From: Patescibacteria group bacterium
GTDB taxonomy: Bacteria > Patescibacteriota > Microgenomatia > UBA10105 > UBA927
NCBI GenBank assembly: GCA_035510735.1
Contig: DATKGN010000010.1
Span: 27,814-91,813 of the forward strand
Length of the DNA: 64,000 nucleotides
Direction: 5' to 3'
A program made the position numbers and the translations under genes. Position 1 is the first letter of the stretch; every line of letters starts with the position of its first letter. Positions 15,994-40,070 of this stretch are shown in pieces. Under the pieces are notes generated by a model. The model made no database searches, was not told the DNA's origin, and saw only the letters and a program-made list of their open reading frames with translations.

Positions 15994-15995
15994 CA

Positions 15996-17310: not shown

Positions 17311-17484
17311 ATGGCCAAGAAAGATCAACGGGAACTGCTTGCACTCATCTGCACTGTATGTAAATCCCAGAACTATATTACAAAGAGGAATAAGATCAAT
17401 ACGCCGGAAAAACTGGTGCTTCAAAAGTATTGTCCTCACTGCCGAAAACATACACAACACAAAGAGACGAGTAAGTTGGATTAA
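17311..17484 (+). CDS. rpmG: 50S ribosomal protein L33
   Basis: 57-aa ORF 'MAKKDQRELLALICTVCKSQNYITKRNKINTPEKLVLQKYCPHCRKHTQHKETSKLD', the canonical L33 CxxC...CxxC zinc ribbon. Too short to appear in the ORF track. Confidence 0.8.
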   Translation: MAKKDQRELLALICTVCKSQNYITKRNKINTPEKLVLQKYCPHCRKHTQHKETSKLD

Positions 17485-17520
17485 AAGAGCTTAGGGAATT
17501 AGGGTATTAGAGTTTAGGAA
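17485..17520. repeat. TAGAG/CTCTA palindromic element (copy 3, short)
   Basis: 'aaaagagcttagggaattagggtattagagtttaggaat'. Confidence 0.5.
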
Positions 17521-17521
17521 T

Positions 17522-17896
17522 ATGGAAAAGTCCGTATTTAACTTCGAGAGACTCACGGTATACCAACGTGCATTAGCATTCGCCTTGAACATTTATTCAC
17601 GTACACAAAAATGGCCGCGGGAACATCTTTTTGGTTTAACAGATCAACTAAGAAGAGCATCTTTATCCATTCCGTTAAATATCGCTGAGGGGTATAGTAG
17701 GTCGCGAAAAGACTTTCAGCATTTTTTGACTCTATCACGGGGATCCTGTTTTGAATGTGTTCCGATAATAAAACTAGCGGAGTCTCTCACTTTGCTTACT
17801 TCAAAAGAAGCTGATATGTTTTATAATGAATTAGAGGAAATTGCTAAGATGCTTAGTGGACTACGGAGTTCGCTATTGAAACAACCTAAACTCTAA
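17522..17896 (+). CDS. four-helix-bundle protein (23S rRNA IVS protein family)
   Basis: 'DQLRRASLSIPLNIAEGYSRSRKDFQHFLTLSRGSCFEC'. Bracketed by TAGAG-family repeats on both sides. Confidence 0.8.
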   Translation: MEKSVFNFERLTVYQRALAFALNIYSRTQKWPREHLFGLTDQLRRASLSIPLNIAEGYSRSRKDFQHFLTLSRGSCFECVPIIKLAESLTLLTSKEADMFYNELEEIAKMLSGLRSSLLKQPKL

Positions 17897-17935
17897 AACC
17901 CTAAGCTCTAATCTCTAATGCTCTAAACTCTAACT
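17897..17935. repeat. TAGAG/CTCTA palindromic element (copy 4, short)
   Basis: 'aaccctaagctctaatctctaatgctctaaactctaact'. Confidence 0.5.
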
Positions 17936-18457
17936 ATGCATCGTAATACGTATTTTGTCGTGACGTTCTTAGCGGTTTTTGCCGCACTGGTAGTCGGAGT
18001 TAACATCGGGAAGAAATTCACGGGTCAAAATGCCCCGCCAATCCAACCTTCTCCCACCGCTTCACCCACACTTGCATCTATCCCATTATCTACTTATACA
18101 AATTCTGAGTGCGGCGCTACGTTAGAATTTCCAAGCACCCTTACGAAGCTTGAAGACGGCTCAGGAAGCGCAGTCCTTGTCAACCAGACCGATACAAAAC
18201 AATCCATTCTTATCACCTGCCAGGATAGTATCCCGCGGCCGCCCTTAGATTCAAATAAAATTGTGCAGGCGTTCGTACCGTATTCAACCGGCACCGGAAG
18301 CGTCGCGGCAACGCTCTATCACGACAGTTCGGCAAAAGACGGAACACCGGTCGACGACTTTATCGTCCGGATTCCGAAAACAACATTGGATTTTTATCTC
18401 TCAGGATTCGGCACCGCCTTCGATGACGTTGTGAAATCTATTCGACTCACCCACTAA
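17936..18457 (+). CDS. hypothetical membrane-anchored secreted protein
   Basis: TM 'YFVVTFLAVFAALVVGV', Pro-rich linker, no catalytic motif. Confidence 0.5.
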   Translation: MHRNTYFVVTFLAVFAALVVGVNIGKKFTGQNAPPIQPSPTASPTLASIPLSTYTNSECGATLEFPSTLTKLEDGSGSAVLVNQTDTKQSILITCQDSIPRPPLDSNKIVQAFVPYSTGTGSVAATLYHDSSAKDGTPVDDFIVRIPKTTLDFYLSGFGTAFDDVVKSIRLTH

Positions 18458-18568
18458 CCTCTTTTTATCACCGCATTAGCATTAAAACAGACTGGAAAAC
18501 GTTAAAACAATTCGGGTGTTCGTATCACGGTTTAATTAAACAGCTGAAACTGATAAAATAGGTCCATT

Positions 18569-18638
18569 AGGGCCATGATGCAATGGTAGCATGAGGGTCT
18601 CCAAAACCCTTCATCCAGGTTCAAGTCCTGGTGGCCCT
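18569..18638 (+). tRNA. tRNA-Trp (anticodon CCA)
   Basis: Acceptor agggcca/tggccct, D-arm atgc-aatggta-gcat, anticodon stem agggt/accct with loop ctCCAaa, T-arm ccagg-ttcaagt-cctgg. Confidence 0.8.
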
Positions 18639-18717
18639 GCAAAGGGGTCGTGGTTCCCCGCCTGCCAGAGCTTACGCTCAGGCGTTAGCGGGCAGGGACT
18701 CCACGTGGCCCTGCAAA
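18639..18717. repeat. tRNA-associated element (copy 2), bounded by a direct repeat of the tRNA-Trp 3' end
   Basis: 'gtggccctgcaaa' occurs at 18631-18643 and again at 18705-18717. Between them lies 'ccccgcctgccagagcttacgctcaggcgttagcgggcaggga'. Confidence 0.6.
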
Positions 18718-18791
18718 CCAAACACGTTAGAATGACACTATTGTTCATTATTTCGTTTCATTTCGAAAATCTTCTATTATAGAATATAACT

Positions 18792-19322
18792 ATGCGTAAA
18801 CAATATTTACTTATACTCTGTGGACATCCATTTTCCGGCAAAACAACTCTCGCTCAAGCGATTGTAAATCAATATGATTTGGCATTTGTAAATCTTGACG
18901 AAATAAATCGAAGCCGAGGTGTTGGAATCAAGGGTAAGCCCATGACTCCTCGACTCTGGAAAGAAACGTACGAGTTGGGTTTTAAAGAAACAAAAAAACT
19001 ACTACAAGGTGGAAAATCAGTTGTATATGAAGGAGCCAACTTTACCGAACTACTTCGGTCAGAAATTCTAGCCATAACAAAACATACAAATATTATTCCA
19101 ATCATCATACACGTTGCCACAACCCAGAACGAATGCCATAAAAGATTACTACACAACCGGAAAACAAATAGTAGATACGACGTTAAAGACAAAGATTTTT
19201 CATTAGTATGTAATAACTTTCAGATACCGACTGAAAAAGAAGCAAAAGTACTTACGTATAATGCAGACTCTCCTCTGGGTTATTGGCTAATAGAGAATCT
19301 AGATGTTTGCTTTAAAAAATAA
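18792..19322 (+). CDS. P-loop NTPase/nucleotide kinase-like (AAA_33/zeta-toxin-like fold)
   Basis: Walker A 'LCGHPFSGKTTLA'. AT-rich by eye compared with its neighbours. Confidence 0.55.
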   Translation: MRKQYLLILCGHPFSGKTTLAQAIVNQYDLAFVNLDEINRSRGVGIKGKPMTPRLWKETYELGFKETKKLLQGGKSVVYEGANFTELLRSEILAITKHTNIIPIIIHVATTQNECHKRLLHNRKTNSRYDVKDKDFSLVCNNFQIPTEKEAKVLTYNADSPLGYWLIENLDVCFKK

Positions 19323-19365
19323 TATAATTCATCACAGTCTACCGGTGCCGGCATCTTAAAACACT

Positions 19366-20091
19366 ATGTTTACCTACGAACAAATATTTAAGGATAAACA
19401 CTCAGTTTTATTCGTAACTGCGCATCCTGACGATATTTTGGTTTATTATGCTGCTCTCGTTCATAAACTTCGAAAAGAAAATAAAAACGTATATGCCGTA
19501 ACGGTAACGAATGGCGCCCGGGGCAGTGGTGATAAAAACATATCGGAATCGGAACTTTCCCGTATGCGCATAAAAGAAGAAACTGCTGCCCTCAAGTTTT
19601 TGGGAGTCAATGCGGAAAATACGCTTTGCCTCGATTATAAAGACGGCGAGGTGGAAAGTAACTACAAGTTCATTGGTGAAATTTCAAAATATATTCGCAA
19701 ATTCAAAGCTGACATCGTCTGCACTCATGAGCCAACGGCAATCTATCAAGCGACGTATAAACGTGATGGATTTTTCGTCCAACATCGGGATCATCGAAAA
19801 GTAGCGGAAGCGGTGGTTGATGCCGTATATCCCTTCTCACGAGATCGATCATTCTTTCCCGAGCAAATAAAAGAAGGCATCGAACCGCATACGCTTTACG
19901 ACATCGTTATGACGGACGAAATCTCATGTAATTTTGAACTGGATTACACTGAAGATTTAGAGGTTAAAAAGGCAGCGATGCGTATTCATAAAAGCCAGTT
20001 TGATGAAGCATTTATCAACGATATTGTGGATACGGTACGAAATAATGATCGGTACGTGGAAAAATACTTCTATGTAAAACTATTATGGTAA
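19366..20091 (+). CDS. PIG-L/LmbE-family N-acetylglucosaminyl deacetylase
   Basis: 'LFVTAHPDDILVYY' (AHPDDE motif) and downstream His/Asp-rich motifs. Confidence 0.7.
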   Translation: MFTYEQIFKDKHSVLFVTAHPDDILVYYAALVHKLRKENKNVYAVTVTNGARGSGDKNISESELSRMRIKEETAALKFLGVNAENTLCLDYKDGEVESNYKFIGEISKYIRKFKADIVCTHEPTAIYQATYKRDGFFVQHRDHRKVAEAVVDAVYPFSRDRSFFPEQIKEGIEPHTLYDIVMTDEISCNFELDYTEDLEVKKAAMRIHKSQFDEAFINDIVDTVRNNDRYVEKYFYVKLLW

Positions 20092-20804
20092 ACAAGCTCC
20101 GACCGACTGTTATTTGCCATATGATGATGACCATCGATGGGAAAATCACGAGTGGTGAACAAACAGATATTCTCAACAACTATTTTGACCTCTATACCAA
20201 AACGGAAGATATGCTCCCCGCTCATACAGCTTGGATGTGCGGACGTGTGACGATGCAAATGTTTGCGAGTACTAAAGATGTCTCCCTACCAACGCCATCA
20301 CATGCTATTGAGCCAATAGATTATATAGCCCCGCACGAGGGCAATCTGTTCATGTTCGGTGTGGACACTAAAGGCGTACTCCGTTGGGGTAAAAACTCAA
20401 TAAAACTCTCAAATGTTGCCGAGCCGCTCCATCTGGTAGTCATAGTGACCACATCAACTCCGAAAGAGTATCTCCAATATCTGCAAAATAATGGTATCTC
20501 GTATCTCGTAGCGGGTACTAATGAAATAGATTTCCTTAAACTTTTTACAACAATGAAGGAAAAATTCGGAGTTGAAACGCTTCTTCTTGAAGGTGGCGGT
20601 CTTCTCAATGGATCAGTAATGGCAGATAACCTCGTCGATGAAATTAGTATACTCGTCACACCTACAGTGACCAATCGAAGCAAAGCTCCATCAGTATTTG
20701 AACGAAAACAAGAAGAACCCCTAAACCTGCGACCCTACTCGCTCGTGGGTGTACAAAAACTAGATAAAGACACGGTTTGGTTGAGGTATAAAAAACATGA
20801 ATGA
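20085..20804 (+). CDS. RibD C-terminal domain/dihydrofolate-reductase-like reductase
   Basis: 'VICHMMMTIDGKIT' start typical of the RibD_C/DHFR-like family, and 'LLLEGGGLLNGSV'. Confidence 0.6.
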   Translation: MVNKLRPTVICHMMMTIDGKITSGEQTDILNNYFDLYTKTEDMLPAHTAWMCGRVTMQMFASTKDVSLPTPSHAIEPIDYIAPHEGNLFMFGVDTKGVLRWGKNSIKLSNVAEPLHLVVIVTTSTPKEYLQYLQNNGISYLVAGTNEIDFLKLFTTMKEKFGVETLLLEGGGLLNGSVMADNLVDEISILVTPTVTNRSKAPSVFERKQEEPLNLRPYSLVGVQKLDKDTVWLRYKKHE

Positions 20805-21081
20805 TAGCATTTATACACAAATACAAACAATTTCTGACGGTGGATTTGGCTCATGTGATGTATACACAATGAAGTCCGGCGGGATCGAGCGGAAACACTA
20901 CCATAACGGCATCGAAATCGTATATGTCATCAAAGGAAACTGTAAAACTCACAAGCAGGGACAAGTATACGTCTATCAAAAAGGTCAAATCCACGAAGTG
21001 ATTAATGACTCGAAAAATGAACTTGTTTTTGTTTGTTTAACAATCCCTCCGGAATCAAAAGAAAATACTATGTATATATAG
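20797..21081 (+). CDS. cupin-domain protein
   Basis: 'HYHNGIEIVYVIKGNC...GQVYVYQKGQIHEV', the two cupin motifs. Confidence 0.6.
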   Translation: MNDSIYTQIQTISDGGFGSCDVYTMKSGGIERKHYHNGIEIVYVIKGNCKTHKQGQVYVYQKGQIHEVINDSKNELVFVCLTIPPESKENTMYI

Positions 21082-21118
21082 AGCAACTATTATTTAATAA
21101 AACCATAAATTATCCTCC

Positions 21119-22003
21119 ATGTTTCAAATACTAAACTTTTTTGAACGAATGTATTGGAAAATATCACGAAAAATTGTGGGATTGACGAGCTACAAAGTCT
21201 ACCATGATGACCCACTTCATGAATTTCCCATCCTGCCATTTCCTAAGTTTGTCCGGTCAGTAAAAACCAAACTGAAACGAAACAACGGCACGTGGTTTCT
21301 TGACATGAAACTCGGAAATGAAAAGCGTATGACCTACGCATTTTTGGAAAAACCATTTGACCCCAAACAACCGACAATTATTTTTCATCACGGAGCCGGA
21401 ATGATCAATTATCGAAATTTATTATGGCTCTATTTCCTCCGCGGACCATTAACCAAATACAACCTTATTTCAATTAAAGCCCAGGAGCATGAATCCACGA
21501 TGACGTTTGCGAAAACCGGATTTAATACGCTTACTCACCAGCTGGCGACATTCGCGGGATCCGTTCTCATGGTCGAAGCGCTGGTGAAATGGCTGCGGGC
21601 AGAGCGATCAATGCCTGTGGTAATCGGCGCGTCCATGGGCGGGATTGTCGCTTCTTGGCATTGGTTATTATTTAATACGGCAGCGTTTTATTTTCCCATC
21701 ACCGCATATCCAAATGTGACGGAAATATTTTTAGGTGTCGGCTATGACGGCGCGACCGACCACCGATACGAAAGGCAATTATTATCAACATATGCGAATG
21801 CATTTCTTGCGCCTTGGAAGAATCCAAAATTATATAAAGACAAGGTGTTTCCCATTCTCGGAAAAAATGACACGATTGTCCCCTATCAACACGCACGCGA
21901 ATTCTGGAAGGGATATGATGTACTCACCTTCCCGAATGGCCACATGACAACGGCGCTTCATTATAATAAGATAACCACACACATCGCATCAAAGCTGCCG
22001 TAG
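21119..22003 (+). CDS. alpha/beta-fold hydrolase
   Basis: 'IFHHGAGM' and nucleophile elbow 'VIGASMGGIVA'. Confidence 0.5.
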   Translation: MFQILNFFERMYWKISRKIVGLTSYKVYHDDPLHEFPILPFPKFVRSVKTKLKRNNGTWFLDMKLGNEKRMTYAFLEKPFDPKQPTIIFHHGAGMINYRNLLWLYFLRGPLTKYNLISIKAQEHESTMTFAKTGFNTLTHQLATFAGSVLMVEALVKWLRAERSMPVVIGASMGGIVASWHWLLFNTAAFYFPITAYPNVTEIFLGVGYDGATDHRYERQLLSTYANAFLAPWKNPKLYKDKVFPILGKNDTIVPYQHAREFWKGYDVLTFPNGHMTTALHYNKITTHIASKLP

Positions 22004-22025
22004 AATCAAAAAGTATATTATCCCG

Positions 22026-23129
22026 TTATAGAACTGATAGGAGTATGAGTTGTACCCAATGAACGACACCGAGGGGCTGGACACAGGCAAAAATAACCCA
22101 CGCAATAAACGCCGCATTGCGCCTTTGGTCGCGCTTTTTTGAAATCCCGTAAAATATGGAAAGTGTCCATCCGATGAATAGTAAAAGACCGATACTCCCC
22201 GACCAGAGTGCAACGTCAAGAAATACGTTATGCGACCGGTCGATCATGAAATTCACAAGATTCACGTGCTCTAGTTTCATCGCATTATCGTAAATCACCT
22301 CTTCTGTTTCGGCGCCGTATCCGAGTATCGGCCGCTTGAGAAATTCCCCAAGTCCGACGCGCCAATAAAGAAGACGATTCTCGTAAATAGACGGGGGGCG
22401 GGACAATGTAATGGAGCGATATTGCATTAAACCTGCGATTGCGATCGCCACAAATATCAAAATCATGCCAACAACAACGAGGGTGTGTTTCCTCTTTTCC
22501 ATAAGTGACCGGACACCGAATCCGAGCATTACGATCACGGCACAAATGAGTGCGCTCCGCGATTCCGTTGCTACAATTGCAGCTCCGCTAATGATATAAA
22601 AAATAATCCGCATCCAATTGGGTATTCGCGGCCACAGAAGTATCCACAATAATCCGACCGCTAGATAGCCGCCGAGTGCATTGGGTTCTCCGAATGTGCC
22701 AAGCGGCCGCACGGACCACGCAAGGATTTTTTGCTCTAAGGTAAGTACGCTTTCGATAAGTACCCCGAAACCGAGAAGCGACAATACATATTCACGGTGT
22801 TTCAATGAGAACTGTCGTACGGTTTCGAGAATTAACAGTAAGGTAAAGAAAAATAATATTCCCTGATGCCGGTAGCTGCCGCCGATGAACGAATCAATCG
22901 GGTGAATACCGATAAGACTTGCAATGCCCAAAATTCCAATCCACCCCAATAACCACTCACCCGTTTGGCTTAACCGGAGCGGGTGCAAACGGATGAGCCG
23001 TATGAACCAATACAGTGTCAGGAAAAATCCTCCGATCCACAGCCACACAACTTTTGTGCCCTCGAACGCGCCGTAAAGCATGACGAACGGCATACATGCA
23101 ATCCAGTAGGTAAGTAGCAGTGTAAGCAT
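22026..23129 (-). CDS. O-antigen ligase (Wzy_C)-family membrane protein
   Basis: About 10 TM helices, 'ATESRSALICAVIVMLGF', 'RSHNVFLDVALWSGSIGLLLF'. Confidence 0.55.
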   Translation of the reverse strand: MLTLLLTYWIACMPFVMLYGAFEGTKVVWLWIGGFFLTLYWFIRLIRLHPLRLSQTGEWLLGWIGILGIASLIGIHPIDSFIGGSYRHQGILFFFTLLLILETVRQFSLKHREYVLSLLGFGVLIESVLTLEQKILAWSVRPLGTFGEPNALGGYLAVGLLWILLWPRIPNWMRIIFYIISGAAIVATESRSALICAVIVMLGFGVRSLMEKRKHTLVVVGMILIFVAIAIAGLMQYRSITLSRPPSIYENRLLYWRVGLGEFLKRPILGYGAETEEVIYDNAMKLEHVNLVNFMIDRSHNVFLDVALWSGSIGLLLFIGWTLSIFYGISKKRDQRRNAAFIAWVIFACVQPLGVVHWVQLILLSVL

Positions 23130-23227
23130 CTACTAAAAGTATACGGACTTTCGGATATTCCTGCTACCCATAAATAAGTAAAGTTAAATATATATATATT
23201 TGTAATCTATATTACTTTATTAGTTAT

Positions 23228-23256
23228 TGACGACTCATACACATGACGATACGATG
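23228..23256 (+). promoter_or_regulatory. candidate sigma70-like promoter for the giant surface-protein gene
   Basis: 'TTGACG' - 17 nt - 'TACGAT' in an AT-rich leader before ATG 23262. Confidence 0.3.
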
Positions 23257-23261
23257 ATAGT

Positions 23262-26200
23262 GTGAATTTATATCAATCGAGAACGCATTTTGTCATGACT
23301 CAGCGGAATTATCTTCTGCGCGTTTTTATCGGCCTTGTTCTCCTTTTCCTCTTGCCGTTATTTATTTGGGCCGTATTGACACAGCGGATTGAGCTTCGTA
23401 AACGGGCTGCTTCTGCCGAACCGGTCACATGTTGGGGTCGGGCTTTCGAACAAAATAATACTCCTTATTGGCCTGACCGATGCGGCGCCGGCGGAGCAAA
23501 CGCAAGTTCAAGCGCCTGTGCACAAGTGACAACGCCGTTATCAATCGTTGAAATGTCCGGATACAAAAAATGGAAAACGGAAGGAAGAAAACCAATCTAC
23601 GGTTGTGTTGCCCCAATTAACTGGCAAACACAATACGCTTCCCTTCAGGCGAGTGACATATTGGTCGTAGCAAACGATAGCTCATTCACAGCAAATTACG
23701 CAACCGATCTCGTGCTACATTCAAATCCACCCGATACAGATCCCAACTACATGACGCTTGAGTCAACGTGGACGCAAAACGGGTTCAATATGGGATTGAA
23801 TATGTATTTTACGGCAGAGACGGCAACCCCAGCCGGGATACTCGGGATATTCGGAACCCCGTCCCGAAAGTGGCGCGTCACGGAAATCAGAACGTCTGAC
23901 AGCCAAGTCGGCAGCGGTTGGATTTATTATAAAAATCCGAACATCCCCGCGATGAATATAGGGAAACCATTCACAGGAACTATTGATTTGACGTCAACGG
24001 ATGGCGGCACCGGAGAGATACGATTTACGAACCTTCGTCTCCAGGCATTCTTAAACGAAACTCCTCCTAATCCAAGTCACACGCCTAAACCGATACCAGC
24101 ATCTTCAGAATGCGGCCCCTGCGGTTCTGGTTGCCCTTCGGGTCTGGTTTGCCAAACTATGCCGACGCCTACGCCGTTTTGCCCAAATGGCTCCAACGGA
24201 CCCTGTAGCACGATAGTCGTTAGCCCCTATCAGGCATGTGTGAAACCGGACGGCTCAAGCCTGTGTCCCGTACAACGTGATGCTATGTGTTTCGGGCAAC
24301 CCAACGGAAAACAATGTAACGGCGCGTGTACCGATTCGATGCCAACGCATTGTTCTACCGGCGTCTGTCAAAACAACCAGTGTGTCTTTGACTCGACCCC
24401 CACGCCGACGCCCGTAGCATGTCTTGACGTCACAAGAGCGCTCGCGAGCGTTGCTCCCCTGAAAGCTGGCTCGAGTATTGGCTTAAATTGGGGCGGCCTC
24501 AATGAAAAATGGTTCCAGGATAAAAATAATCAGTGGTATTATATTTACGCAGATCCGAGCGGCGTACCGCCGCTCTATGTTGTTTGGCTTTGGAACGGGG
24601 CCACGGGACTTCAGCAAAATGGTTATAATGTCCGAGGAGATGCCCCAATAACGCCTTCAACAAAAAGCTGTTACGACGCCATAACGCCGGACTATGTTTT
24701 CCCATCAATTGCACATAGCTCGTGTGCGGGCCCAAATGGCTCAACATGTCAATACGACGATTGCAATACATGTACTACAGTTCCTAACGGAAAAGTTCAT
24801 TGCACATTAGAGAAGGCATGCATGAAAACGGGCATCTGTACGAACAATCTCTGCCAACCACCCCCTGCCCCGACTCCAACGCCGCACAATTACTGTGCCG
24901 GTGCGAACGGCTCAACCTGCCAATACGACGCCAGCAATACGTGTACTACAGCTCCTAACGGAAAAGTTGCTTGCACATTAGTGAAGGCACGTATGAAAAC
25001 GGGCATCTGTACGAACAATCTCTGCCAATCTGCGCCAAGCCCGACTCCAACGCCGCACAATTACTGTGCGGGCGCAAACGGCACGGCTTGTCCGTATACA
25101 CCGTGTACTCCCTGTAACGGCACAAATTGTACAAACATCTGGTGCCCTGCCACTCCCGGAATGTGTACAAATAATCAATGCCAGCCACCGCCTCAAGCGG
25201 GATGTTATTATCAGACAATGGAATGTTTTGCGGCGCCGTGCCCGGTTACGCTCGTGTGTCCGACGCCTACGCCGACACCCGCCTGTGTCAGAAACAACCC
25301 GACTATAACTATTAATCCATCAAATCAATCCGGCCACCCGGGCGATAATCTATTTTATAAAATATTATTTACCGATACAGACAGCCGTGAATGTGCCCCA
25401 TCTGAATTTTCCATAACTGCACAGCCGGGCACGGGTCTGACATCCTTATTAACATTTACAACCTTACCTAATGTGTATCCCCAAAATACTCCCGGTGATG
25501 GCATGAATGTGACGTCTGCCACGTCAGGTTTTTCATCACCCACAACGGTTCCGATTATTGTCACCGTAACTAATAACAATTCAGGATTGTATACACAGCT
25601 CAATACAACAACATACACCATCGTACCAACGCCGACTCCAACGCCTACTCCGACACCCTCACCCACACCGACGCCGACAGTTACGCCGACGCCGACCAAT
25701 AGCCCGACGCCGACGCCGACGCCCACGCCGACGCCGCAGAATTTGGAATTCCTGGTGAAGCTCGCCGGCGTTACCGGTGGAGCAGCTGAAGGCGCAAAGA
25801 TAACCGTTAAATTTAATGTGCAGGGCGGATCGACGCTCCAATTATCATCACCCCTCACGCTTACTCATATCGGCAACGGTGTGTATAGAACAACAGCTAC
25901 GATCACAAATCCATTCCCAGCAGGCACAAACTATACTATTTCCATCAAAGGTGAAAAGCACGCGGCAATTGTATTCACTCATCAATCGAGCCAGACGAAT
26001 GAATGTTCCGACGGGCAATATATTACGATGCCGAACCCCGTGCCAAGCGGATTGACATTTGACTTTACCGGTGTACCACTCCCTGCGGGAGACACAAATC
26101 CTCAGGATAATCAGGTTAATCAAACTGATATCGACCGCGTCGTAGCGCTCATGGGGAAATCAAGTAGTAGTCTGACGGATAACGATAAACTCGTCGGCGA

Positions 26201-31282: not shown

Positions 31283-31361
31283 AGCCTTTCTTTCCACTCA
31301 GGTGGATTAGAAAGACTTACATCCGCCGACTTGTCCGCCGTAGCTTTAGCGAAGGTGGAAG

Positions 31362-31394
31362 CATTGGCGAAGAAGAAGCGGTGAGATATAATGA
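31362..31394 (+). promoter_or_regulatory. candidate promoter for secE-nusG
   Basis: 'TTGGCG' - 17 nt - 'TATAAT', then a GAGG SD before ATG 31403. Confidence 0.3.
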
Positions 31395-31402
31395 GGTATT
31401 GT

Positions 31403-31618
31403 ATGGATAAACCAAATACGCCATCGATCCCAAATGTATCACCGGTCAGATTCTTAAATGAAGTAGTCGCTGAACTTAAGCGCGTCACCTGGCCGACACG
31501 CGAAGAGTTAATCAAGCTCACGACAGTCGTGATCGCGATTTCAATTCTCGTCGGTGCATTCATCGGCGGATTGGACGCACTTCTCGTTCAAGTACAAAAA
31601 ATAGTCTTTACACGATAA
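31403..31618 (+). CDS. secE: preprotein translocase subunit SecE
   Basis: 'FLNEVVAELKRVTWPTREELIKLTTVVIAISILVGAFIGGLD' is the SecE pattern. Immediately precedes nusG. Confidence 0.75.
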   Translation: MDKPNTPSIPNVSPVRFLNEVVAELKRVTWPTREELIKLTTVVIAISILVGAFIGGLDALLVQVQKIVFTR

Positions 31619-31620
31619 CT

Positions 31621-32244: not shown

Positions 32245-32264
32245 ACTTATCTAGCGAAATCCAG

Positions 32265-32391
32265 AGCGAAGCGTCGGATTGAGCTAGACTTCCTTCAAGT
32301 TAGTAAATTATAAATCTTCTCCAGCGAGATCCCGATGAGCGAAGCGATATCGGGATACGAACTCGACTTCCTCCAAGTTTCAAAACTTTAA
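32265..32391 (+). repeat. two re-coded tandem copies of the nusG 3' end (last 10 codons + stop), each with an adjacent hairpin
   Basis: 'gagctagacttccttcaagttagtaaattataa' (32281-32313) and 'gaactcgacttcctccaagtttcaaaactttaa' (32359-32391) both encode ELDFLQVSKL-stop, the same as the nusG C-terminus, with different codons. Hairpin 'atcccgat-gagcgaagcgat-atcgggat' lies at 32329-32356. Confidence 0.75.
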
Positions 32392-32457
32392 TCTTTTCTC
32401 GGTTGACCTCCACGAAAAGGAACACCCGTATAACGTTACTTCCGGAATCAGATGAAA

Positions 32458-33759: not shown

Positions 33760-33970
33760 CTTCTATGATCACGCATATTTCATCCTTTTGCAAGGGCGTA
33801 TTTGCCTCACTCTTGCCAATAGCGGCATTGTTATGATATAGTTCAACTTACTTCGTCCGTCGGAAGACTCATGAAGGAGAAACCGGGATTTTGTTTGGGT
33901 TTCGATCGTAAAGTAAGACTGACTTCAAAAGCATCTTCTTTCTTTCGCACCACTCCCCGATTTTTAGTCA

Positions 33971-34052
33971 AGAGCTTAGAGCATTAGAGTGTAGAGCTTA
34001 GTATTTCTAAACTCTAAACCTAAACTCTAATGCCCTAATTTACTAAACCCTA
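33971..34052. repeat. TAGAG/CTCTA palindromic element (copy 5)
   Basis: 'agagcttagagcattagagtgtagagcttag...ctaaactctaaacctaaactctaatgccctaatttactaaaccctaact'. Confidence 0.6.
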
Positions 34053-34056
34053 ACTT

Positions 34057-34485
34057 ATGGTCGCAAAAAAAATCAAAACAATTATCAAGTTAAACCTCAA
34101 AGCCGGTGAAGCGACGGCAGCCCCTCCGGTCGGACCCGCGCTGGGACAGCACGGACTTCCGATCATGGAATTCGTCAAAGCCTACAATGAAAAGACGTCA
34201 AAACTCAAGGGTCAGATTATCCCTGCCGTCATTACCGTCTTCGTGGACCGGACGTTTACCTTTATCACCAAGCTTCCGCCGGTATCCGCAATGATCAAAA
34301 AGACACTGGGAATTGACAAGGGTGGCGGTAAAGCAGGCCGCGAAATTGCCGGAAAACTCACCAAAGAACAGGTAAAGCAAATTGCAACAGATAAATTACC
34401 GGACATGAATGCAAATACCGTTGAAGCCGCTATAAAAGTGGTTATGGGGACAGCGAGAAGTATGGGGATTGAGGTTGAAAGTTGA
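34057..34485 (+). CDS. rplK: 50S ribosomal protein L11
   Basis: 'KLNLKAGEATAAPPVGPALGQHGLPIMEFVKAYNEKT'. Confidence 0.9.
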   Translation: MVAKKIKTIIKLNLKAGEATAAPPVGPALGQHGLPIMEFVKAYNEKTSKLKGQIIPAVITVFVDRTFTFITKLPPVSAMIKKTLGIDKGGGKAGREIAGKLTKEQVKQIATDKLPDMNANTVEAAIKVVMGTARSMGIEVES

Positions 34486-34487
34486 TA

Positions 34488-34560
34488 GAGCTTAGAGCAT
34501 TAGGGCATTAGAGATTAGAAAAACTAAACTCTAAGTTCTAAATACTAAACTCTAATTTAT
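34488..34560. repeat. TAGAG/CTCTA palindromic element (copy 6)
   Basis: 'gagcttagagcattagggcattagagattagaaaaactaaactctaagttctaaatactaaactctaatttatt'. Confidence 0.6.
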
Positions 34561-34561
34561 T

Positions 34562-35419
34562 ATGGGCAAAATCAGAGTCGCCAAATTAGGCGACGAATCA
34601 CAGGAAAAAGAACAAAAACGACGTGCAGACGCACGGCGCCAAACGAAGGATTCCAAAAAATCCAAAGTAGAGGGCGTCCATCTCCATGGCGGTGAACGGG
34701 TCGCAGTCGTTGAGGGAACCGAAATCAGACCGGAGTTTAAAAAGCTTATTGAAGAAGTTGAAGGCACCGATACCGCTAAAGACGGGAAAAAAGCGAAAAA
34801 AGAACATAAAGCGCGGGTTCGCTCAAAGCGGTATGTTGAAAAAGCCTCGCTCATTGAAAAAAATAAATTGTATCCCCTTGGCGACGCCGTATCACTCGTC
34901 AAACAAACAAGCCTTACGAAGTTCGACGGCACGGTAGAGATGCATATCAATTTAAATTCGCAAATGTTAGGAGAAAAGAAAGATTTCCGCGGATCAGTCT
35001 CGCTTCCTCATGGCACGGGCCGCGAGGTCCGGGTCGTCATCGCCGATGATGCAGTAATAGCCGCCGTCACGGATGGAAAAATTGATTTTGATATTCTGGT
35101 TGCCCACCCCAGCATGATGCCAAAGCTCGCTAAAATAGCTAGAGTGTTAGGGCCCAAAGGGCTTATGCCCAATCCCAAAAACGGCACGGTATCTCCTGAT
35201 CCTGAAAAACGCGCAAAAGAGCTCTCTCACGGGCAGGTGAACTTTAAAACTGAACCGGATCAGCCGCTTATTCACTTATCCGTCGGCAAAGTATCGTTTG
35301 ATGACACGAAGCTCGTCGAAAACATTGAAGCGGTTGTCCGCGCCGTCGGCGCCAATAAAATCTCGCGTGCCACCCTCACCGCCACCATGGGCCCGGGTGT
35401 TAAAATCGCACTTTCGTAA
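34562..35419 (+). CDS. rplA: 50S ribosomal protein L1 with ~85-aa Lys/Glu-rich N-terminal extension
   Basis: Core 'LYPLGDAVSLVKQTSLTKFDGTVEMHINLN...GSVSLPHGTG' is L1. It is preceded by 'MGKIRVAKLGDESQEKEQKRRADARRQTKDSKKSK...KKAKKEHKARVRSKR'. Confidence 0.85.
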   Translation: MGKIRVAKLGDESQEKEQKRRADARRQTKDSKKSKVEGVHLHGGERVAVVEGTEIRPEFKKLIEEVEGTDTAKDGKKAKKEHKARVRSKRYVEKASLIEKNKLYPLGDAVSLVKQTSLTKFDGTVEMHINLNSQMLGEKKDFRGSVSLPHGTGREVRVVIADDAVIAAVTDGKIDFDILVAHPSMMPKLAKIARVLGPKGLMPNPKNGTVSPDPEKRAKELSHGQVNFKTEPDQPLIHLSVGKVSFDDTKLVENIEAVVRAVGANKISRATLTATMGPGVKIALS

Positions 35420-35468
35420 AACTCAACTTGCTATAGCAGCCTAAACCCCGTATAGTACGCTCCTATCT

Positions 35469-35888
35469 ATGGGCAATCCGCGGACAAACGGACAATTAAA
35501 GCGTGAGGAAACCGAAAACGCACTTATGACCATCATTGAGTGGCTAGCTGACCAAAACGAAGAGAAGTTCAGACCACGGACGCTTGAGGGTATATATTTC
35601 AAAGATCTAAAAGGAAGATCTCATCTCATATCATGGGCTAGATTTTCTGTAGAAAATCTAGAACTTCTACACAAGAGGCTTACGAGTGAATTGCGTGACG
35701 AACAGACGACCGGAGAAGATCGATTTACGTTTGGCACTATACGCAACTCACATGAAGATGTCCTCGGTTTAGCCTTTGCTCGTCCAAGCATCGCCCGGGA
35801 ATACGGTGCAAACAGCAAACTTCTCGATCATATGATCGCCGCAGAGGGAAATGTCACTCTCAAAGCCAGCTGTTCTAAGGAAACATAA
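35469..35888 (+). CDS. hypothetical protein (inserted between rplA and rplJ)
   Basis: 139-aa ORF, no recognisable domain. Confidence 0.4.
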   Translation: MGNPRTNGQLKREETENALMTIIEWLADQNEEKFRPRTLEGIYFKDLKGRSHLISWARFSVENLELLHKRLTSELRDEQTTGEDRFTFGTIRNSHEDVLGLAFARPSIAREYGANSKLLDHMIAAEGNVTLKASCSKET

Positions 35889-35955
35889 CAAATTGACCTT
35901 CCCCAATCTCTCCGCACTTGTCCCCCATCTTATAATTGACTATAGTGAATATAGT

Positions 35956-36519
35956 ATGATTGATACGCGCATCGTGCAGTCCCTCAAAGACTCAGCAAGC
36001 GTATTTGTGACTGAGTGCGTCAATAACCCCCAAAAGTGCGGACTCTCGCGGAGTGAAAAGAATTGGATGGAGGAATTAAGTAAAGTCTACCTCTGTGCCG
36101 AGCTTCACGTCGACCTCCCTGCCCATCCAACCCGCGAATTCCTGGAAAAAATCAGGAAAATGACGGAATTCGGCCACGACAGCGCCGTTACGACGCGTAT
36201 GATTCTCTACAGCGCCAATATCGCCTGCGAGAAGGATTTTGCTACCAACACTCCCGCCTATTTAGCCACGCTCGAGCACCACCAGGAGCACTGGAGCCAG
36301 AAACATGTTGAATCCCAGCATGCATATATACAAAAACGGTCGATAGAGGATTTCATGCAGGCGTATTTTGATACACCGGAATCAATATCAGAGCCCGAAC
36401 TCACGTTCTACCTCACTCTCTACTTTAAGCATTTTTATCGACTCCTCTACCAGTTTATGCTATTCTATACGCAGTCGCAGTCACCTGTTTACTATGGCAG
36501 AGGAAACCCAAAATCCTGA
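35956..36519 (+). CDS. hypothetical protein
   Basis: Track ORF 35851-36519. An internal ATG at 35956 (MIDTRIVQSL) avoids overlap with the upstream gene. Confidence 0.35.
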   Translation: MIDTRIVQSLKDSASVFVTECVNNPQKCGLSRSEKNWMEELSKVYLCAELHVDLPAHPTREFLEKIRKMTEFGHDSAVTTRMILYSANIACEKDFATNTPAYLATLEHHQEHWSQKHVESQHAYIQKRSIEDFMQAYFDTPESISEPELTFYLTLYFKHFYRLLYQFMLFYTQSQSPVYYGRGNPKS

Positions 36520-36655
36520 CAACGACGAAGCAAGGTTTGATAAATCCCGCAATATGACGGCCGTGCTTGAGCGCGCTCTGGAGGGAGCTGGGAAAATCGG
36601 CGCCAAACTCATAGACGCCGCAGGCGAAATCTTCAGCATGATTTTTAAACGGTAG
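36494..36655 (+). CDS. small hypothetical protein
   Basis: 'MAEETQNPDNDEARFDKSRNMTAVLERALEGAGKIGAKLIDAAGEIFSMIFKR'. Weak. Confidence 0.25.
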   Translation: MAEETQNPDNDEARFDKSRNMTAVLERALEGAGKIGAKLIDAAGEIFSMIFKR

Positions 36656-36718
36656 AGTCCCCTTTCTTGCATTTTCCAACCCTCCTTGTTATAAAGCCAC
36701 TAACTACCCGAACGTGAT

Positions 36719-37561
36719 ATGACCATCCAAGAACAAGCTGAATTAAAACGCGGAGCCCCCTCGCATGAAACTCCAACATTTGATAAGGAATCGGTCATTG
36801 GCGCTACTCGTGTCTTAATTGGCCAACTCGACGGTTTGAGGCAGTTTGCAGATCGCGAGAACCTTGACACCTCAATGGAAATCCTCACAAATCTCTTAGT
36901 GCGCGTGCCTCCCACGGAGGAAATCAGGGAATCGCTCACTGATTTTGTTACCAATGTGCCGGATAAATCAAATGAGAAGGAAAAAAGACATTATGTCCGG
37001 ATGCTCAGATTCCTGGCTCCATTTGTCGACTCCGCAAGCGTACTTAACGGTTTAAATCATGCAAAAAGATATCCGGGATTCAACAAGTTCAAAGATGCAC
37101 TCCCGATCCTCATACAGCTAGATGATAAGTCAGAGGCAATCTCAGCGATGCAAACATTAGCAAAAAATACGAACAGGTGGTCCCGAGAATTTGTATCAGT
37201 AGCAACCGTTTTTGAAGGGTTAGCCTATATTCACAACGAAGATGCGGTCACTATGCTCCAAGAAGGACTCACGATAACAAACCAAAAAATGGAAACAATT
37301 GAACGCAAATCGGCCTACACTGCAAAAGACGGTGATGATATGCACGCGTATTCCTATATCCGTGAGTCCATAATATCCGCGCTTGCCCATAATAACGACC
37401 CTCATGCGCTGGCCGTATTAACACAAGAACTTGAAATTGTGACTAATCAGATAGTCGATTATAAGGAAGCAAATAAAAGAGTTTTCGAAGTAAATCATAC
37501 AACGAATCTGCTAGAGATAGTCAGAGCACTGATGGCGAAGGCTGATGGGCGCGCCGCTTGA
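36719..37561 (+). CDS. hypothetical alpha-helical repeat protein
   Basis: 280 aa, helical-repeat-like composition. Overlaps the next ORF by 17 nt in another frame. Confidence 0.45.
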   Translation: MTIQEQAELKRGAPSHETPTFDKESVIGATRVLIGQLDGLRQFADRENLDTSMEILTNLLVRVPPTEEIRESLTDFVTNVPDKSNEKEKRHYVRMLRFLAPFVDSASVLNGLNHAKRYPGFNKFKDALPILIQLDDKSEAISAMQTLAKNTNRWSREFVSVATVFEGLAYIHNEDAVTMLQEGLTITNQKMETIERKSAYTAKDGDDMHAYSYIRESIISALAHNNDPHALAVLTQELEIVTNQIVDYKEANKRVFEVNHTTNLLEIVRALMAKADGRAA

Positions 37562-38303
37562 TCAAAAAACGTTTGACGCGTGTATGCGGGCGTTCTCGTT
37601 GGGTAACACAGAAATAACGAATATCGTCGGGTATTCGTTGCTCCCATCCGGCCCGCTCGATCATGACGAAGCAACATTTGAACTTCGCCCATGGGACTAC
37701 CAAGAATGTGATCTGTTTATGGCGGAGTTGGCAATACTCCATAATCAGGGTTCAGAGAGCGACAAGCGTCTTGTCAAAAATAAAACGCTCTACACAAACA
37801 TGGTTGAGTTTGTCCCTTATAACCACCGCGCACACGATTTAGACGTTATAGCCCGATACATCGGGATAAATAATAAATCATTCTTACCTGAAGCGGTATT
37901 CAATACTCCAATGCCTACCCTCCAAAACATCGATAACCTTATGATGAATAAAGCTATTGTAAAACTTCCTAAAATAATCGAACCCATTTGGTATCAAAGG
38001 TTTGGTCCAATAAGCATGATAACACTGCATAACCCTCATGCATCCGTTGAGGATCGTATTGGCGCGGCGATGGCAATAAAAGATAAATATGTGCGAAAAC
38101 CCGTGGAAAGCATTGAGAGGTCACTTAGATTCGCAGAATTAGTGGGTGAGCTTTTTAAGAACAATCCTGATCTTGTAAAAACTGCTGTGGCAGCAGTCTG
38201 TGTGAGCATTGTGCCCGGACGGACCGCAGAACTGCTTAACAACTTCTCCGGTGATACGGCCATTAAGCGCGGTATTTTGTGGGCACTTGAACAATCGAAG
38301 TAA
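37545..38303 (+). CDS. hypothetical alpha-helical protein
   Basis: 252 aa. Possibly the continuation of the previous ORF after a frameshift. Confidence 0.4.
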   Translation: MGAPLDQKTFDACMRAFSLGNTEITNIVGYSLLPSGPLDHDEATFELRPWDYQECDLFMAELAILHNQGSESDKRLVKNKTLYTNMVEFVPYNHRAHDLDVIARYIGINNKSFLPEAVFNTPMPTLQNIDNLMMNKAIVKLPKIIEPIWYQRFGPISMITLHNPHASVEDRIGAAMAIKDKYVRKPVESIERSLRFAELVGELFKNNPDLVKTAVAAVCVSIVPGRTAELLNNFSGDTAIKRGILWALEQSK

Positions 38304-38380
38304 AACGAATATAATACACTAATCCTAAAGACCGTGCGCCATTCGATAAAGGATATAAGCCGCACCGAGGGAAATTAGTA

Positions 38381-38448
38381 AGAACTTAGGGCGTAGAGCA
38401 TTAGAGCTTAGAAAAACTAAACTCTAAGCACTAAACCCTAAACTCTAA
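38381..38448. repeat. TAGAG/CTCTA palindromic element (copy 7)
   Basis: 'gaacttagggcgtagagcattagagcttagaaaaactaaactctaagcactaaaccctaaactctaaca'. Confidence 0.6.
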
Positions 38449-38474
38449 CATTCCCTCATCAAGAGGGATTTTTT

Positions 38475-39020
38475 ATGGAACACCCATCGAAAGGGACGCC
38501 GAAAAAAGTAAATACCGTAACCGAACTAACGGAGAGGGTCGCAAAGGCCAAATCCATGATCGTCGTGGAATATCAGGGTGTCAAACACAAGCAATTTGAA
38601 GAGCTCCGGAAAACCCTCAGGAAGACGAATGCGGAATTTGTCGTGACGAAAAACAGACTTTTCAAACGCGCGCTCGGCGATAAATCAAAATTACTGGAAT
38701 CACTTCTCGAACAGCCGACGGCTACCCTTTTCACCTATGGTGACGAGGTTGCCCCCCTTAAAGATCTCATGAAGTTTTTCAAGACTGTGGGATTCGGCAA
38801 AGCCAAAGGCGGGCTGTTGGGCACAACCGTATTAAGTGACACGGATGTAACCCGGCTTTCCACCCTTCCCACCCGAGAACTTCTCCTCGGCAGTCTGGTA
38901 CGGCAGCTTAACGCGCCGATCCAAAGCCTGCACTACGGACTTCAATGGAATTTGAATAAGTTAGTTTGGGCGATAAATAGTATAAAAAATTCAAAATCCG
39001 AAGCACTAAATTCAAAATAA
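38475..39020 (+). CDS. rplJ: 50S ribosomal protein L10
   Basis: 'AKSMIVVEYQGVKHKQFEELRKTLRKTNAEFVVTKNRLFKRAL'. Confidence 0.85.
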   Translation: MEHPSKGTPKKVNTVTELTERVAKAKSMIVVEYQGVKHKQFEELRKTLRKTNAEFVVTKNRLFKRALGDKSKLLESLLEQPTATLFTYGDEVAPLKDLMKFFKTVGFGKAKGGLLGTTVLSDTDVTRLSTLPTRELLLGSLVRQLNAPIQSLHYGLQWNLNKLVWAINSIKNSKSEALNSK

Positions 39021-39029
39021 TATCAAAAT

Positions 39030-39115
39030 TCAAATATCGAATGTTTTGAATTTAAGATTTGTTCATTTAGATTTATTTTGGATTTAGAGTTTTGAAATTA
39101 GGATTTGTTTATTGA
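39030..39115. repeat. 'aattcaaaa/ggatttgg' low-complexity repeat, related to the in-frame repeats inside the O-antigen ligase gene
   Basis: 'aaaattcaaatatcgaatgttttgaatttaagatttgttcatttagatttattttggatttagagttttgaaattaggatttg'. Confidence 0.45.
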
Positions 39116-39134
39116 AAGGTGGTGACAACAAATT

Positions 39135-39524
39135 ATGGCAAAATTATCCAAAGATGAAATACTAGCGGCAGTAGGTGAAATGACCGTACTCGAACTGGCA
39201 GATCTCGTGAAAGCACTCGAGGAAAAATTTGGTGTCACCGCAGCTCCTGTCGCCGTTGCCGGTGCCGCACCAGCAGCCGCAGCAGATAGCGGAGAACCCA
39301 AAGAGGAACAAACAGTATTTAACGTCGTTCTGGCTGCCGCAGGCGCCAACAAAATCGGCGCTATTAAAGCGGTCCGTGAACTCGTTCCGACGCTCGGTCT
39401 TCAGGAAGCAAAGACACTCGTTGAGAGCGCTCCCAAAGAAGTCCTGACAGGCGTTAACAAAGCAGCAGCTGAGGAAGCCAAGAAAAAGCTGGAAGCCGCA
39501 GGGGCCAAGGTGGAACTAAAGTAA
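39135..39524 (+). CDS. rplL: 50S ribosomal protein L7/L12
   Basis: '[34 protein letters not shown]...[12 protein letters not shown]'. Confidence 0.9.
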
Positions 39525-39925
39525 TAACTGAAGCAAAAGGAAGTCCGTGGTCAGTTTTCGAGTTTTCGAGAAATTACTGCCACGGATCCCGCATGAGCGC
39601 TCTTTCGAGTCGAGGATGTAAACCTCGCGAGAAAGTAAGCTTCGTGCGGGACGAAAAAGAAATTAGAGGCCGCGGGCGCGAAGGTCGAGCTCAAATAAAA
39701 AATACGATAAAACCCAATTCATATTGGGTCGAGATCCCGACGAATAATATGAGTCGGGATAAGAGCTCAAATAAGAATAAAATAGAAATCCGGCGAAGCC
39801 GGATTCGAGATTCTGATGAGATTTACGAATCAGAATGTGAGCTCAAATAATTATAAAATAAAGTCCAGCTTAGCTGGACCGACATCCCGATAAGTTATAC
39901 GAATCGGGATAAGAGCTCAAGTAAT
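39525..39925 (+). repeat. array of hairpins each followed by a re-coded copy of the rplL 3' end plus stop codon
   Basis: 39669-39698 'gccgcgggcgcgaaggtcgagctcaaataa' encodes AAGAKVELK-stop, the same as the rplL C-terminus, with different codons. Then 'gagctcaaataa' at 39763 and 39839 and 'gagctcaagtaa' at 39913 (ELK-stop). Each is preceded by a hairpin such as 'atcccgac..gtcgggat', 'attctgat..atcagaat' or 'atcccgat..atcgggat'. Confidence 0.75.
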
Positions 39926-39933
39926 GACTTTCT

Positions 39934-40013
39934 TGTCATCGTGAGTCGAGTCTTCGAGACGTGGCGATCTCAAACAAGATTGCTTCGCCGTCCGAACGGT
40001 CTCGCAATGACAT
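39934..40013. repeat. TGTCAT-element (complete; TIR 'tgtcatcgtgag...ctcgcaatgaca')
   Basis: Internal 'tcgagtcttcgagacgtggcgatc...gattgcttcg' is nearly identical to the copy at 61945-62037. Confidence 0.7.
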
Positions 40014-40025
40014 TACTATAAAATC

Positions 40026-40070
40026 TAAAAATCCCCCGCAACCCTTACAGGGTAAAGGGGGATTTTTTTG
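40026..40070 (+). terminator. strong rho-independent terminator
   Basis: 'aaaaatccccc-gcaacccttacagggtaaa-gggggatttttttg'. Confidence 0.6.

Follow-up and report, generated by a model that had tools for sequence, protein, structure and literature searches.

Organization of the rpmG/tRNA-Trp/secE-nusG/rplKA/rplJL gene region in Microgenomates

The gene cluster comprising rpmG, the tRNA-Trp gene, secE, nusG, rplK, rplA, rplJ and rplL is often called universally conserved; phylogenetic markers are drawn from it, and comparisons of synteny are anchored to it. In this work, the cluster was analyzed in a 64-kb stretch of DNA (hereafter, the window) from the contig DATKGN010000010.1 of the assembly GCA_035510735.1, where it is interrupted by numerous other genes. 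This arrangement probably represents a lineage-wide Microgenomates form of the region, in which slots of variable content lie between self-contained units. According to this interpretation, the ancestral gene order would have been kept, and the region would have been divided into small self-sufficient units, that is rpmG, tRNA-Trp, secE-nusG, rplK-rplA with its promoter and leader, and rplJ-rplL with its promoter and leader, with rpoBC and tuf located elsewhere throughout the group. The spacers between the units would tolerate foreign genes because each unit carries its own expression signals, and would serve as slots whose genes are replaced over the times that separate genera or families. 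The present slot genes would for the most part be old residents, while a hairpin unit with a gene of the PF05635 family and a stretch from a kinase to a cupin gene would be later arrivals. The turnover probably proceeds through recombination of unit 3' ends with DNA of related lineages, every event leaving a displaced 3'-end copy of a different allele; as to the mechanism, elements may have integrated at specific sites and then decayed, or the conserved gene may have anchored the recombination.

If this interpretation holds, all that is left of the cluster in Microgenomates is a chain of autonomous units with open, fast-evolving slots between them, and selection appears to protect the regulatory units (leader plus genes), not the whole cluster. 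When annotation and binning of genomes of the Candidate Phyla Radiation (CPR) are checked, breaks in this place would then have to be taken neither for errors nor for recent islands. Gene-order breaks of a comparable kind are already known elsewhere; the parts that stand out as deserving follow-up are the stacks of allelic 3' ends and the hairpin units with PF05635 genes. The slots and these presumed fossils are the places to seek mechanisms of gene exchange in organisms where mobile elements are poorly known.

Gene order, junction lengths and leaders of the units

The NusG protein of the window is 100% identical to that of a metagenome-assembled genome (MAG) designated 'Patescibacteria group bacterium', and shares 74-98% identity with NusG of many Gottesmanbacteria and 60-73% identity with NusG of Davies-, Woese-, Levy- and Curtissbacteria. 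On the basis of these identities the source of the window is assigned to a Gottesmanbacteria-like member of Microgenomates (CPR). For comparison, 80 species-representative loci (nusG with 10 kb on either side) and several neighbourhoods labelled with Pfam were fetched, the number of species-level relatives being 83 overall, and the window proteins were mapped onto these loci with tblastn for determination of junction lengths (L-numbers below are labels of the relatives' loci). The NusG protein of L089 is 98% identical to that of the window; nevertheless, this locus belongs to a different species, since its DNA is only about 72-87% identical.

Within the window, protein genes were called with Pfam and tRNA genes with ARAGORN and Rfam. 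rpmG (L33; 17311-17484, +; Ribosomal_L33, E 6e-21) is followed by the PF05635 gene (17522-17896, +), by a gene for a 173-aa membrane-anchored protein (17936-18457, +) and by the gene of tRNA-Trp (CCA) (18569-18640, +; ARAGORN; 62.8 bits with Rfam). Next come secE (31391-31618, +), nusG (31621-32244, +), rplK (34057-34485, +), rplA (34562-35419, +), rplJ (38475-39020, +) and rplL (39135-39524, +), all of them recognized by Pfam. The gaps within the pairs are as short as 2 nt for secE-nusG, 76 nt for rplK-rplA and 114 nt for rplJ-rplL, so the adjacency typical of the canonical cluster is retained in these three pairs. It is lost at nusG-rplK and rplA-rplJ (spacers of 1812 nt and 3055 nt, both holding genes), at rplL-rpoB, and upstream of secE, which is separated from tRNA-Trp by 12.75 kb and has no rpmG directly upstream either. 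A preliminary description of the region had counted three breaks; these are real, and there are more than three, as the PF05635 and 173-aa genes also part rpmG from tRNA-Trp.

The source of the window being a MAG, and the related L089 locus containing a run of N within the repeated nusG ends described below, a chimera produced by assembly or binning had to be considered, and we regard it as hardly credible. The same gene order is found in 12 contigs (six found via NusG and six via PIG-L) from several samples and assemblers, and thus is not an assembly artefact; besides, related complete chromosomes carry the same backbone. Together with the Pfam and ARAGORN map, these contigs bear out the order of genes given in the preliminary description.

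Across Microgenomates, tRNA-Trp lies 2.6-9.4 kb from secE in the 25 loci where the tRNA gene is visible, and is absent within at least 5 kb of secE in 33 further loci; rpmG and secE are 3 kb or more apart in 23 loci. secE and nusG are neighbours in nearly all loci, and the rplK-rplA and rplJ-rplL pairs stay tight (at most 468 nt in 68 loci and at most 202 nt in 38 loci, respectively). The nusG-rplK junction varies from 6 to 8526 nt, with a median of 2137 nt in Gottesman-like loci vs 222 nt in the other loci, and the rplA-rplJ junction varies from 91 to 7825 nt; rplJL is inverted in two loci, and 20 loci hold at least 3 kb after rplA yet no rplJ. The 1812-nt and 3055-nt spacers of the window are ordinary or upper-range for the clade. 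Its 12.75-kb gap between tRNA-Trp and secE exceeds the range measurable with 10-kb flanks, which turn the longest gaps into lower bounds.

The absence of rpoB after rplL, noted earlier, was confirmed. The longest open reading frame (ORF) in 64 kb encodes 1006 aa; the signature motifs of rpoB, rpoC and tuf, which were applied without a positive control, were found neither in the window nor among 86 loci; and in the 24 loci holding at least 3.5 kb past rplL no ORF of more than 1000 aa directly follows this gene. The place where rpoB would be expected is occupied by a gene of 66 aa with an HTH_17/MerR domain (41600-41800, +; Pfam), which is likewise the next backbone gene after rplL, across a variable gap, in L087, L089, L091, L092 and L093. 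This gene, with its excisionase-like fold, shows 77-85% DNA identity among Gottesman-like genomes. In L077 the HTH_17 domain stands at the head of a protein of 950 aa or more; this large ORF near rplL was examined as a candidate rpoB and rejected, being an HTH_17 fusion. The backbone of Gottesman-like loci reads as GDSL lipase, rpmG, a ~170-aa protein, tRNA-Trp, a variable segment, galU(-), a ~600-aa secreted protein, secE and nusG in its 5' part, and as a variable segment, rplKA, a variable segment, rplJL, a variable segment, the 66-aa HTH_17 protein, a GalT-like protein(-) and a CTP-transferase(-) in its 3' part.

Presumably, separation of rplA from rplJ and of rplL from rpoB is also a feature of Mycobacterium tuberculosis. 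Insertion of genes between the operons of the cluster has been described as relaxing its synteny and as preceding its further loosening (Brandis, 2021, PMC8046335), and genes lie between rplKA and rplJL in Bradyrhizobium and Actinomyces (PMC12993453). The window shares with these disruptions the genes, their order and the positions of the breaks, which fall at the borders of the Escherichia coli operons (nusG|rplK, rplA|rplJ and rplL|rpoB). In contrast to them, all inter-unit junctions in Microgenomates are open at once and across a superphylum-level group, rpoBC is fully detached, tRNA-Trp and rpmG are found 3-13 kb from secE, and the slots turn over between genera. The characterization of rplA|rplJ as an inviolate junction in the preliminary description is not tenable, given its variable length in relatives, the same break in the two genera mentioned and the intactness of the rplJ leader.

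Promoter-like sites, each with 10/12 matches in the promoter scan, were located at 31364-31392 (before secE), 33813-33842 (before rplK) and 38287-38315 (before rplJ). The control region of rplKA (33813-34056, +) contains upstream of rplK, at ~33865-33905, a motif resembling the L1 leader, GAAGGAGAAACC..GGTTTCGA, which is conserved across relatives as GA[AG]GGAGAAACC..GGTTTCGA; outside a periodic hairpin this region is more than 85% identical to that of L089. The leader in the rplJL control region (38287-38474, +) consists of AAGAC, a 5-bp helix and CCGAGG, and is kept in 27 Microgenomates lineages. When covariation was counted on a construct minus the variable internal hairpin, the helix proved to be 99.3% paired with 23 double-sided changes, while none of 500 shuffles was as good and no slid register came near. 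Immediately upstream of rplJ the terminator scan revealed a terminator or Shine-Dalgarno-sequestering hairpin (38452-38468), with which the element ends like the known L10 leader.

Both elements share with the autoregulatory leaders of L10 (rplJ) and L1 (rplK) conserved structure just upstream of the gene and a promoter of their own, and differ from them by the hypervariable periodic hairpin embedded in each window leader. The rplJ element may be designated as L10-leader-like only by its position and by its structure and covariation, because the Rfam model L10_leader (RF00557) gave no match to it at E up to 5 in 31000-40300. In general, Rfam at the gathering threshold and at E up to 5 returned no L10 or L1 leader, the only matches being spurious ones of miRNA families to the periodic hairpins. 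The break between rplA and rplJ falls upstream of the rplJ promoter and leader, and the leader stays with rplJ; the rplJ regulatory unit is intact. The units may well be transcribed independently of each other.

Age and origin of the intervening genes

Judging by composition and by occurrence in relatives, most of the intervening genes appear to be old residents of the region; the exceptions, which look newer, are the PF05635 gene (17522-17896) and the AT-rich stretch at 18792-21081. This stretch opens the slot between tRNA-Trp and secE and encodes an AAA_33 kinase (18792-19322, +), a PIG-L/LmbE protein (19366-20091, +), a RibD_C protein (20085-20804, +) and a cupin (20797-21081, +), all recognized by Pfam; it is followed by a gene for a putative alpha/beta-hydrolase (21119-22003, +; weak Pfam match). 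The GC content at third codon positions (GC3) was 0.27 in the kinase gene, 0.33 in the PF05635 gene, 0.38 in the cupin gene, 0.38 in the PIG-L gene and 0.40 in the RibD_C gene, against a background of 0.493 +/- 0.062 (20 genes), and no other intervening gene was low. The impression of an AT-rich kinase region, gained earlier by eye, is therefore correct. It does not extend to 18792-31205 as a whole, since the genes from Wzy to the 623-aa protein (22026-31205) are native in composition, as are the Big-domain gene between nusG and rplK (0.52) and the genes of the rplA|rplJ slot.

The kinase-to-hydrolase part of the slot (18792-22003) has no counterpart in the relatives' loci besides distant PIG-L genes. 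PIG-L orthologues with 60-83% identity occur throughout Microgenomates in unrelated neighbourhoods, and the PIG-L and RibD_C genes are retained as a pair in the relative with 83% identity. A conserved kinase-PIG-L-RibD_C-cupin cassette was considered and rejected, as this pair alone recurs. Because of the low GC3 and the presence of PIG-L orthologues across Microgenomates, it is plausible that 18792-21081 is a later arrival or a translocation, not an exotic import.

The rest of this slot comprises genes for a Wzy_C protein (22026-23129, -; Pfam), a 1006-aa protein (23262-26282), a protein with cohesin and PKD domains (26272-27468; Pfam), flavokinase (27452-27832, -; Pfam), YdjM (27839-28405, -; Pfam), a galU-like protein (28406-29287, -; Pfam) and a 623-aa secreted protein (29334-31205). 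The last four are found in the same order in many relatives, and the Wzy and cohesin/PKD proteins recur in several; galU(-) was found upstream of secE in 33 loci of the Gottesman-like group and in 9 loci outside it. The 623-aa protein had been called SLT-like, for which Pfam offers no support. From the proposed dockerin/cohesin pair, cohesin was recognized by Pfam, whereas dockerin was not: the 1006-aa protein has no Pfam match to it and no homologue in any relative locus (tblastn), and in L087 and L091 its position is occupied by a protein with a Dockerin_1 match (Pfam). Upstream of tRNA-Trp, homologues of the 173-aa gene with 39-47% identity (tblastn) stand in the same place in L012, L013, L018, L020, L024, L031, L033 and L044, and L088 has a 174-aa gene there.

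The surface-protein gene reported between nusG and rplK encodes a 433-aa Big-domain membrane or surface protein (32458-33759, -; weak Big_13/Big_6 matches in Pfam). Members of its family, F1, fill this slot, on the minus strand every time, in 15 loci whose NusG identity goes as low as 75%. The roughly five hypothetical genes announced between rplA and rplJ correspond to four ORFs of 139, 222, 280 and 252 aa and one small ORF (35469-38303, +), none of which matches a Pfam, PADLOC or NCBIfam family. They are collinear with those of L089, the DNA identity of the slot being about 71%; the 222-aa gene is also present in L087, and its product has 6 matches among 1.84 billion representatives. The 280-aa and 252-aa ORFs (36719-38303) overlap by 17 nt in different frames and form a single 524-aa gene in L089 (9142-10716), so the pair represents in the window population either a gene that was split or a pseudogene with a frameshift; a homologue search with the L089 524-aa protein retrieved itself only. 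Daviesbacteria-like loci have their own two-gene pair in this slot.

Within the population (12 contigs) no presence/absence polymorphism was detected, and the slot content is shared with L089 and differs at the genus and family level. The slot ORFs of relatives mostly encode surface or membrane proteins, regulators and toxin-antitoxin systems, with one IS200-like transposase, and the families enriched among them are Big_13, Dockerin_1, MFS and LPG_synthase_TM; no integrase is found among the 25 most frequent of the 47 Pfam families matched by 139 slot ORFs.

These data bear on the view, taken in the preliminary description, that three islands acquired by horizontal transfer recently broke up a contiguous block through site-specific recombination at the 3' end of tRNA-Trp, at the 3' end of nusG and at rplA|rplJ. 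The kinase, PIG-L, cupin and PF05635 genes agree with it by their low GC3, and deviating composition (GC3 0.27-0.40 vs 0.49 +/- 0.06) is confined to 18792-21081 and the PF05635 gene. Most slot genes, by contrast, are native in composition and stand in the same places in other species and genera, and contiguous tRNA-Trp|secE or rplL|rpoB was seen in no relative examined. The comparison of synteny points to a lineage-wide arrangement at the two latter junctions, yet gap lengths are polymorphic at the slots; hence the dynamic nature of the junctions stands, and the recency of most cargo does not. Recent islands are already contradicted for most of the cargo, and as an explanation of the region we consider them unlikely.

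The enrichment of the slots in surface and membrane proteins admits another explanation, by which the intervening genes, for example the envelope genes galU, Wzy, dockerin/cohesin and Big, would be kept through functional or regulatory coupling, being co-expressed with the units, and the arrangement itself would be selected. In line with this, secE has galU(-) immediately before it in several Microgenomates classes, the secreted protein of about 600 aa always stands between galU and secE in Gottesman-like loci, and the Big-family gene always diverges from rplK. At the same time, the contents of the slots vary by clade, the slots of many loci are empty, orphans and toxin-antitoxin genes are numerous among the slot genes, and several slot genes lie on the opposite strand; we therefore regard such coupling as quite improbable. 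The preferred explanation remains that of autonomous units with slots of mainly old content.

Displaced 3'-end copies at unit ends

Directly after tRNA-Trp lies a displaced 3' fragment of this gene (18644-18717, +), and the tRNA 3'-end repeat of the preliminary description was recovered as the exact 13-mer GTGGCCCTGCAAA at 18631 and 18705. The fragment comprises the T arm and the acceptor 3' strand, with a 44-nt hairpin in the T loop (fold z -2.95). By allele comparison the live tRNA-Trp gene belongs to class A and the fragment to class B, which matches the live tRNA-Trp of L012, L013, L024 and L037, not the window's own.

The nusG gene is likewise followed by a stack (32245-32391, +) with two extra ends, 32281-32313 and 32359-32391, which correspond to the last 11 codons and each encode ELDFLQVSKL*. 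Thus, three nusG 3' ends are present vs 0.06 expected, in agreement with the stacks reported earlier. The extra ends differ from the live one by 8 and 9 nt, all differences being synonymous, including TCA vs AGT for serine, and the distal copy is 2 nt away from the live nusG end of L007 and 9 nt away from the window's own. Such stacks are also present in L089, L038, L039 and L084. The spacers of the window stack (32260-32350) contain GCGAAGC, which we take to be a very stable DNA mini-hairpin motif.

In the stack after rplL (39525-39945, +) a second rplL end at 39654-39698 shows 13 nt differences, again all synonymous, and after it come three units of 56 nt, every one terminated by ELK*. The 85-aa ORF (39593-39850) crossing this stack, with a low-complexity Pfam match as its sole match, is probably spurious. 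Copies of rplL ends occur in L009, L025, L028 and L037 too, and in various relatives displaced 3'-end copies follow nusG, rplL, rpmG, secE, galU and the HTH_17 gene. In L087 (17452-17740) the copy that accompanies the HTH_17 gene shows 7 differences from it, all of them synonymous.

The copies derive from functional alleles, not from local drift, because in a simulation of random substitutions none of 200000 runs retained the peptide. Local tandem duplication followed by drift was accordingly rejected, all 8, 9 and 13 differences being synonymous. Two further candidates were discarded: stop-codon readthrough, since the nusG copies of L038, L039, L084 and L089 do not keep the reading frame, even though all three ends share it in the window, and a diversity-generating retroelement (with PF05635 as Avd-like), since the differences fall at synonymous sites and not at adenines. 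We read the 3'-end copies as probable fossils of recombination at the ends of units.

Extra 3'-end copies are also what recently acquired islands would leave. Streptococcal integrative and conjugative elements and integrative and mobilizable elements integrate at rplL, rpmG, rpsI and tRNA genes, at their 3' ends in the case of tRNA genes, rplL and rpmG (PMC4701971), and stacked partial tRNAs mark repeated integration in the tycheposon islands of Prochlorococcus (10.1101/2020.12.28.424599). The region has in common with these elements the extra copies just after tRNA-Trp, nusG and rplL in the window and after rpmG, secE and galU in relatives, as well as the origin of the copied sequence from another allele, and the stacking implies repeated events at one site. 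It differs in that nusG is not among the target genes in PMC4701971, and no integrase was found in the region. Moreover, the copies in the window are only 36-174 nt apart with no genes between them, the cargo lies outside the repeats, and no distal copy of the tRNA end flanks it. Cargo flanked by repeats was found in L039 only, where two nusG ends bracket 2.6 kb with an M29 peptidase gene and small ORFs, without an integrase. The proposed coincidence of insertion points with repeats thus holds insofar as the tRNA-Trp and nusG ends, and also the rplL end, are located at breaks, and fails insofar as the repeats do not flank the cargo.

As a tentative possibility, CPR bacteria could possess an undescribed recombination or mobile-element system directed at conserved translation genes, with their 3' ends and leaders as targets and a new gene end provided in exchange. 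Its products could be the ends of 11-15 codons (or the T arm and acceptor strand) of other alleles with a spacer, along with replaceable periodic hairpins that sometimes hold PF05635 genes. If so, an undescribed system would drive gene turnover in small genomes with no classical integrase on site.

Several points weigh against the interpretation of the region as autonomous units separated by slots with recombination at unit ends. Recombinase domains were found by Pfam neither in the 30 ORFs of 14.7-40.7 kb nor in 20 flanking ORFs, and the hairpins in the spacers of the nusG stack do not surpass shuffled sequences in folding (z -1.0 and -1.7). That the units are transcribed independently is deduced from consensus scans and conserved leaders, the leader of rplJ being one that the Rfam L10 model fails to match. 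Finally, rpoB and tuf were searched for in relatives within flanks of 10 kb and were not located there, and the motifs used for these genes and rpoC had no positive control.

Periodic hairpins, PF05635 genes and other features

Immediately before rpmG, rplK, rplA and rplJ there are hairpins with a period of 7 nt and the structure (TTAGAGC)n-loop-(GCTCTAA)n, their fold z ranging from -3.7 to -6.2. They were located at 17230-17304 before rpmG (z -4.1), at 33971-34050 before rplK (z -3.7), at 34486-34555 between rplK and rplA (z -6.2) and at 38381-38448 before rplJ, and one more at 9067-9132; between rplJ and rplL no significant hairpin of this kind was found (z -0.16). In L089 hairpins stand at matching places (5930-6000, 6430-6510 and 10800-10880) and are built of the unrelated heptamers GTTACTT and GTTCATA, while the flanking leaders are more than 85% identical. 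This suggests cassette-like replacement of the hairpins or their very fast concerted evolution. Further heptamer or octamer arrays are present in the window, for example at 56071, 57725, 59930, 60386 and 63636/63687.

Four PF05635 genes were found in 64 kb: 8389-8751(+), 17522-17896(+), 41873-42331(-) and 46471-46848(-). Three of the four are enclosed between complementary arms of periodic repeats (duplex z -4.1, -6.6 and -4.2), and two of the units split backbone junctions which are otherwise conserved. The gene next to rpmG (Pfam E 2.9e-33, 114.7 bits vs a cut-off of 33.8) is flanked by complementary arms of heptamer repeats at 17486-17521 and 17897-17935, and the joined arms of the unit (17485-17935) fold at -35.8 kcal/mol (z -7.1). 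The gap between rpmG and the 173-aa gene amounts to 451 nt in the window vs about 6-35 nt in relatives. Sequence comparison thus marks 17485-17935 as a clearly delimited, apparently lineage-specific insertion, and the PF05635 hairpin unit may be a small mobile unit. With the intervening sequences of 23S rRNA that contain a PF05635 ORF, three of the four window copies share the position of the gene in the loop of a long complementary stem. They differ in that the stems consist of periodic repeats of 7-9 nt and the unit is placed between rpmG and a protein gene (that of the 173-aa protein), not in rRNA; Rfam detected no rRNA in the window.

Some other features of the window deserve mention. A tRNA-Thr/tRNA-Tyr/tRNA-Thr group precedes tufB in many bacteria. 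In the window the genes of tRNA-Thr(tgt) at 11410, tRNA-Tyr at 12547 and tRNA-Thr(ggt) at 15922 (all called by ARAGORN and Rfam) are stretched over 4.6 kb, with protein genes between them, and then a GDSL lipase gene follows instead of tuf (11410-17186). The L1 protein, of 285 aa, has a Lys/Glu-rich N-terminal extension of ~85 aa common to Gottesman-like relatives, and NusG has a Lys/Glu-rich N-terminal extension of ~35 aa. In the regions 24723-25082 and 25626-25738, the gene of the secreted 1006-aa protein contains a 171-nt tandem duplication coding for a Cys-rich module, and repeats of the ACGCCG type which code for long Pro-Thr linkers.

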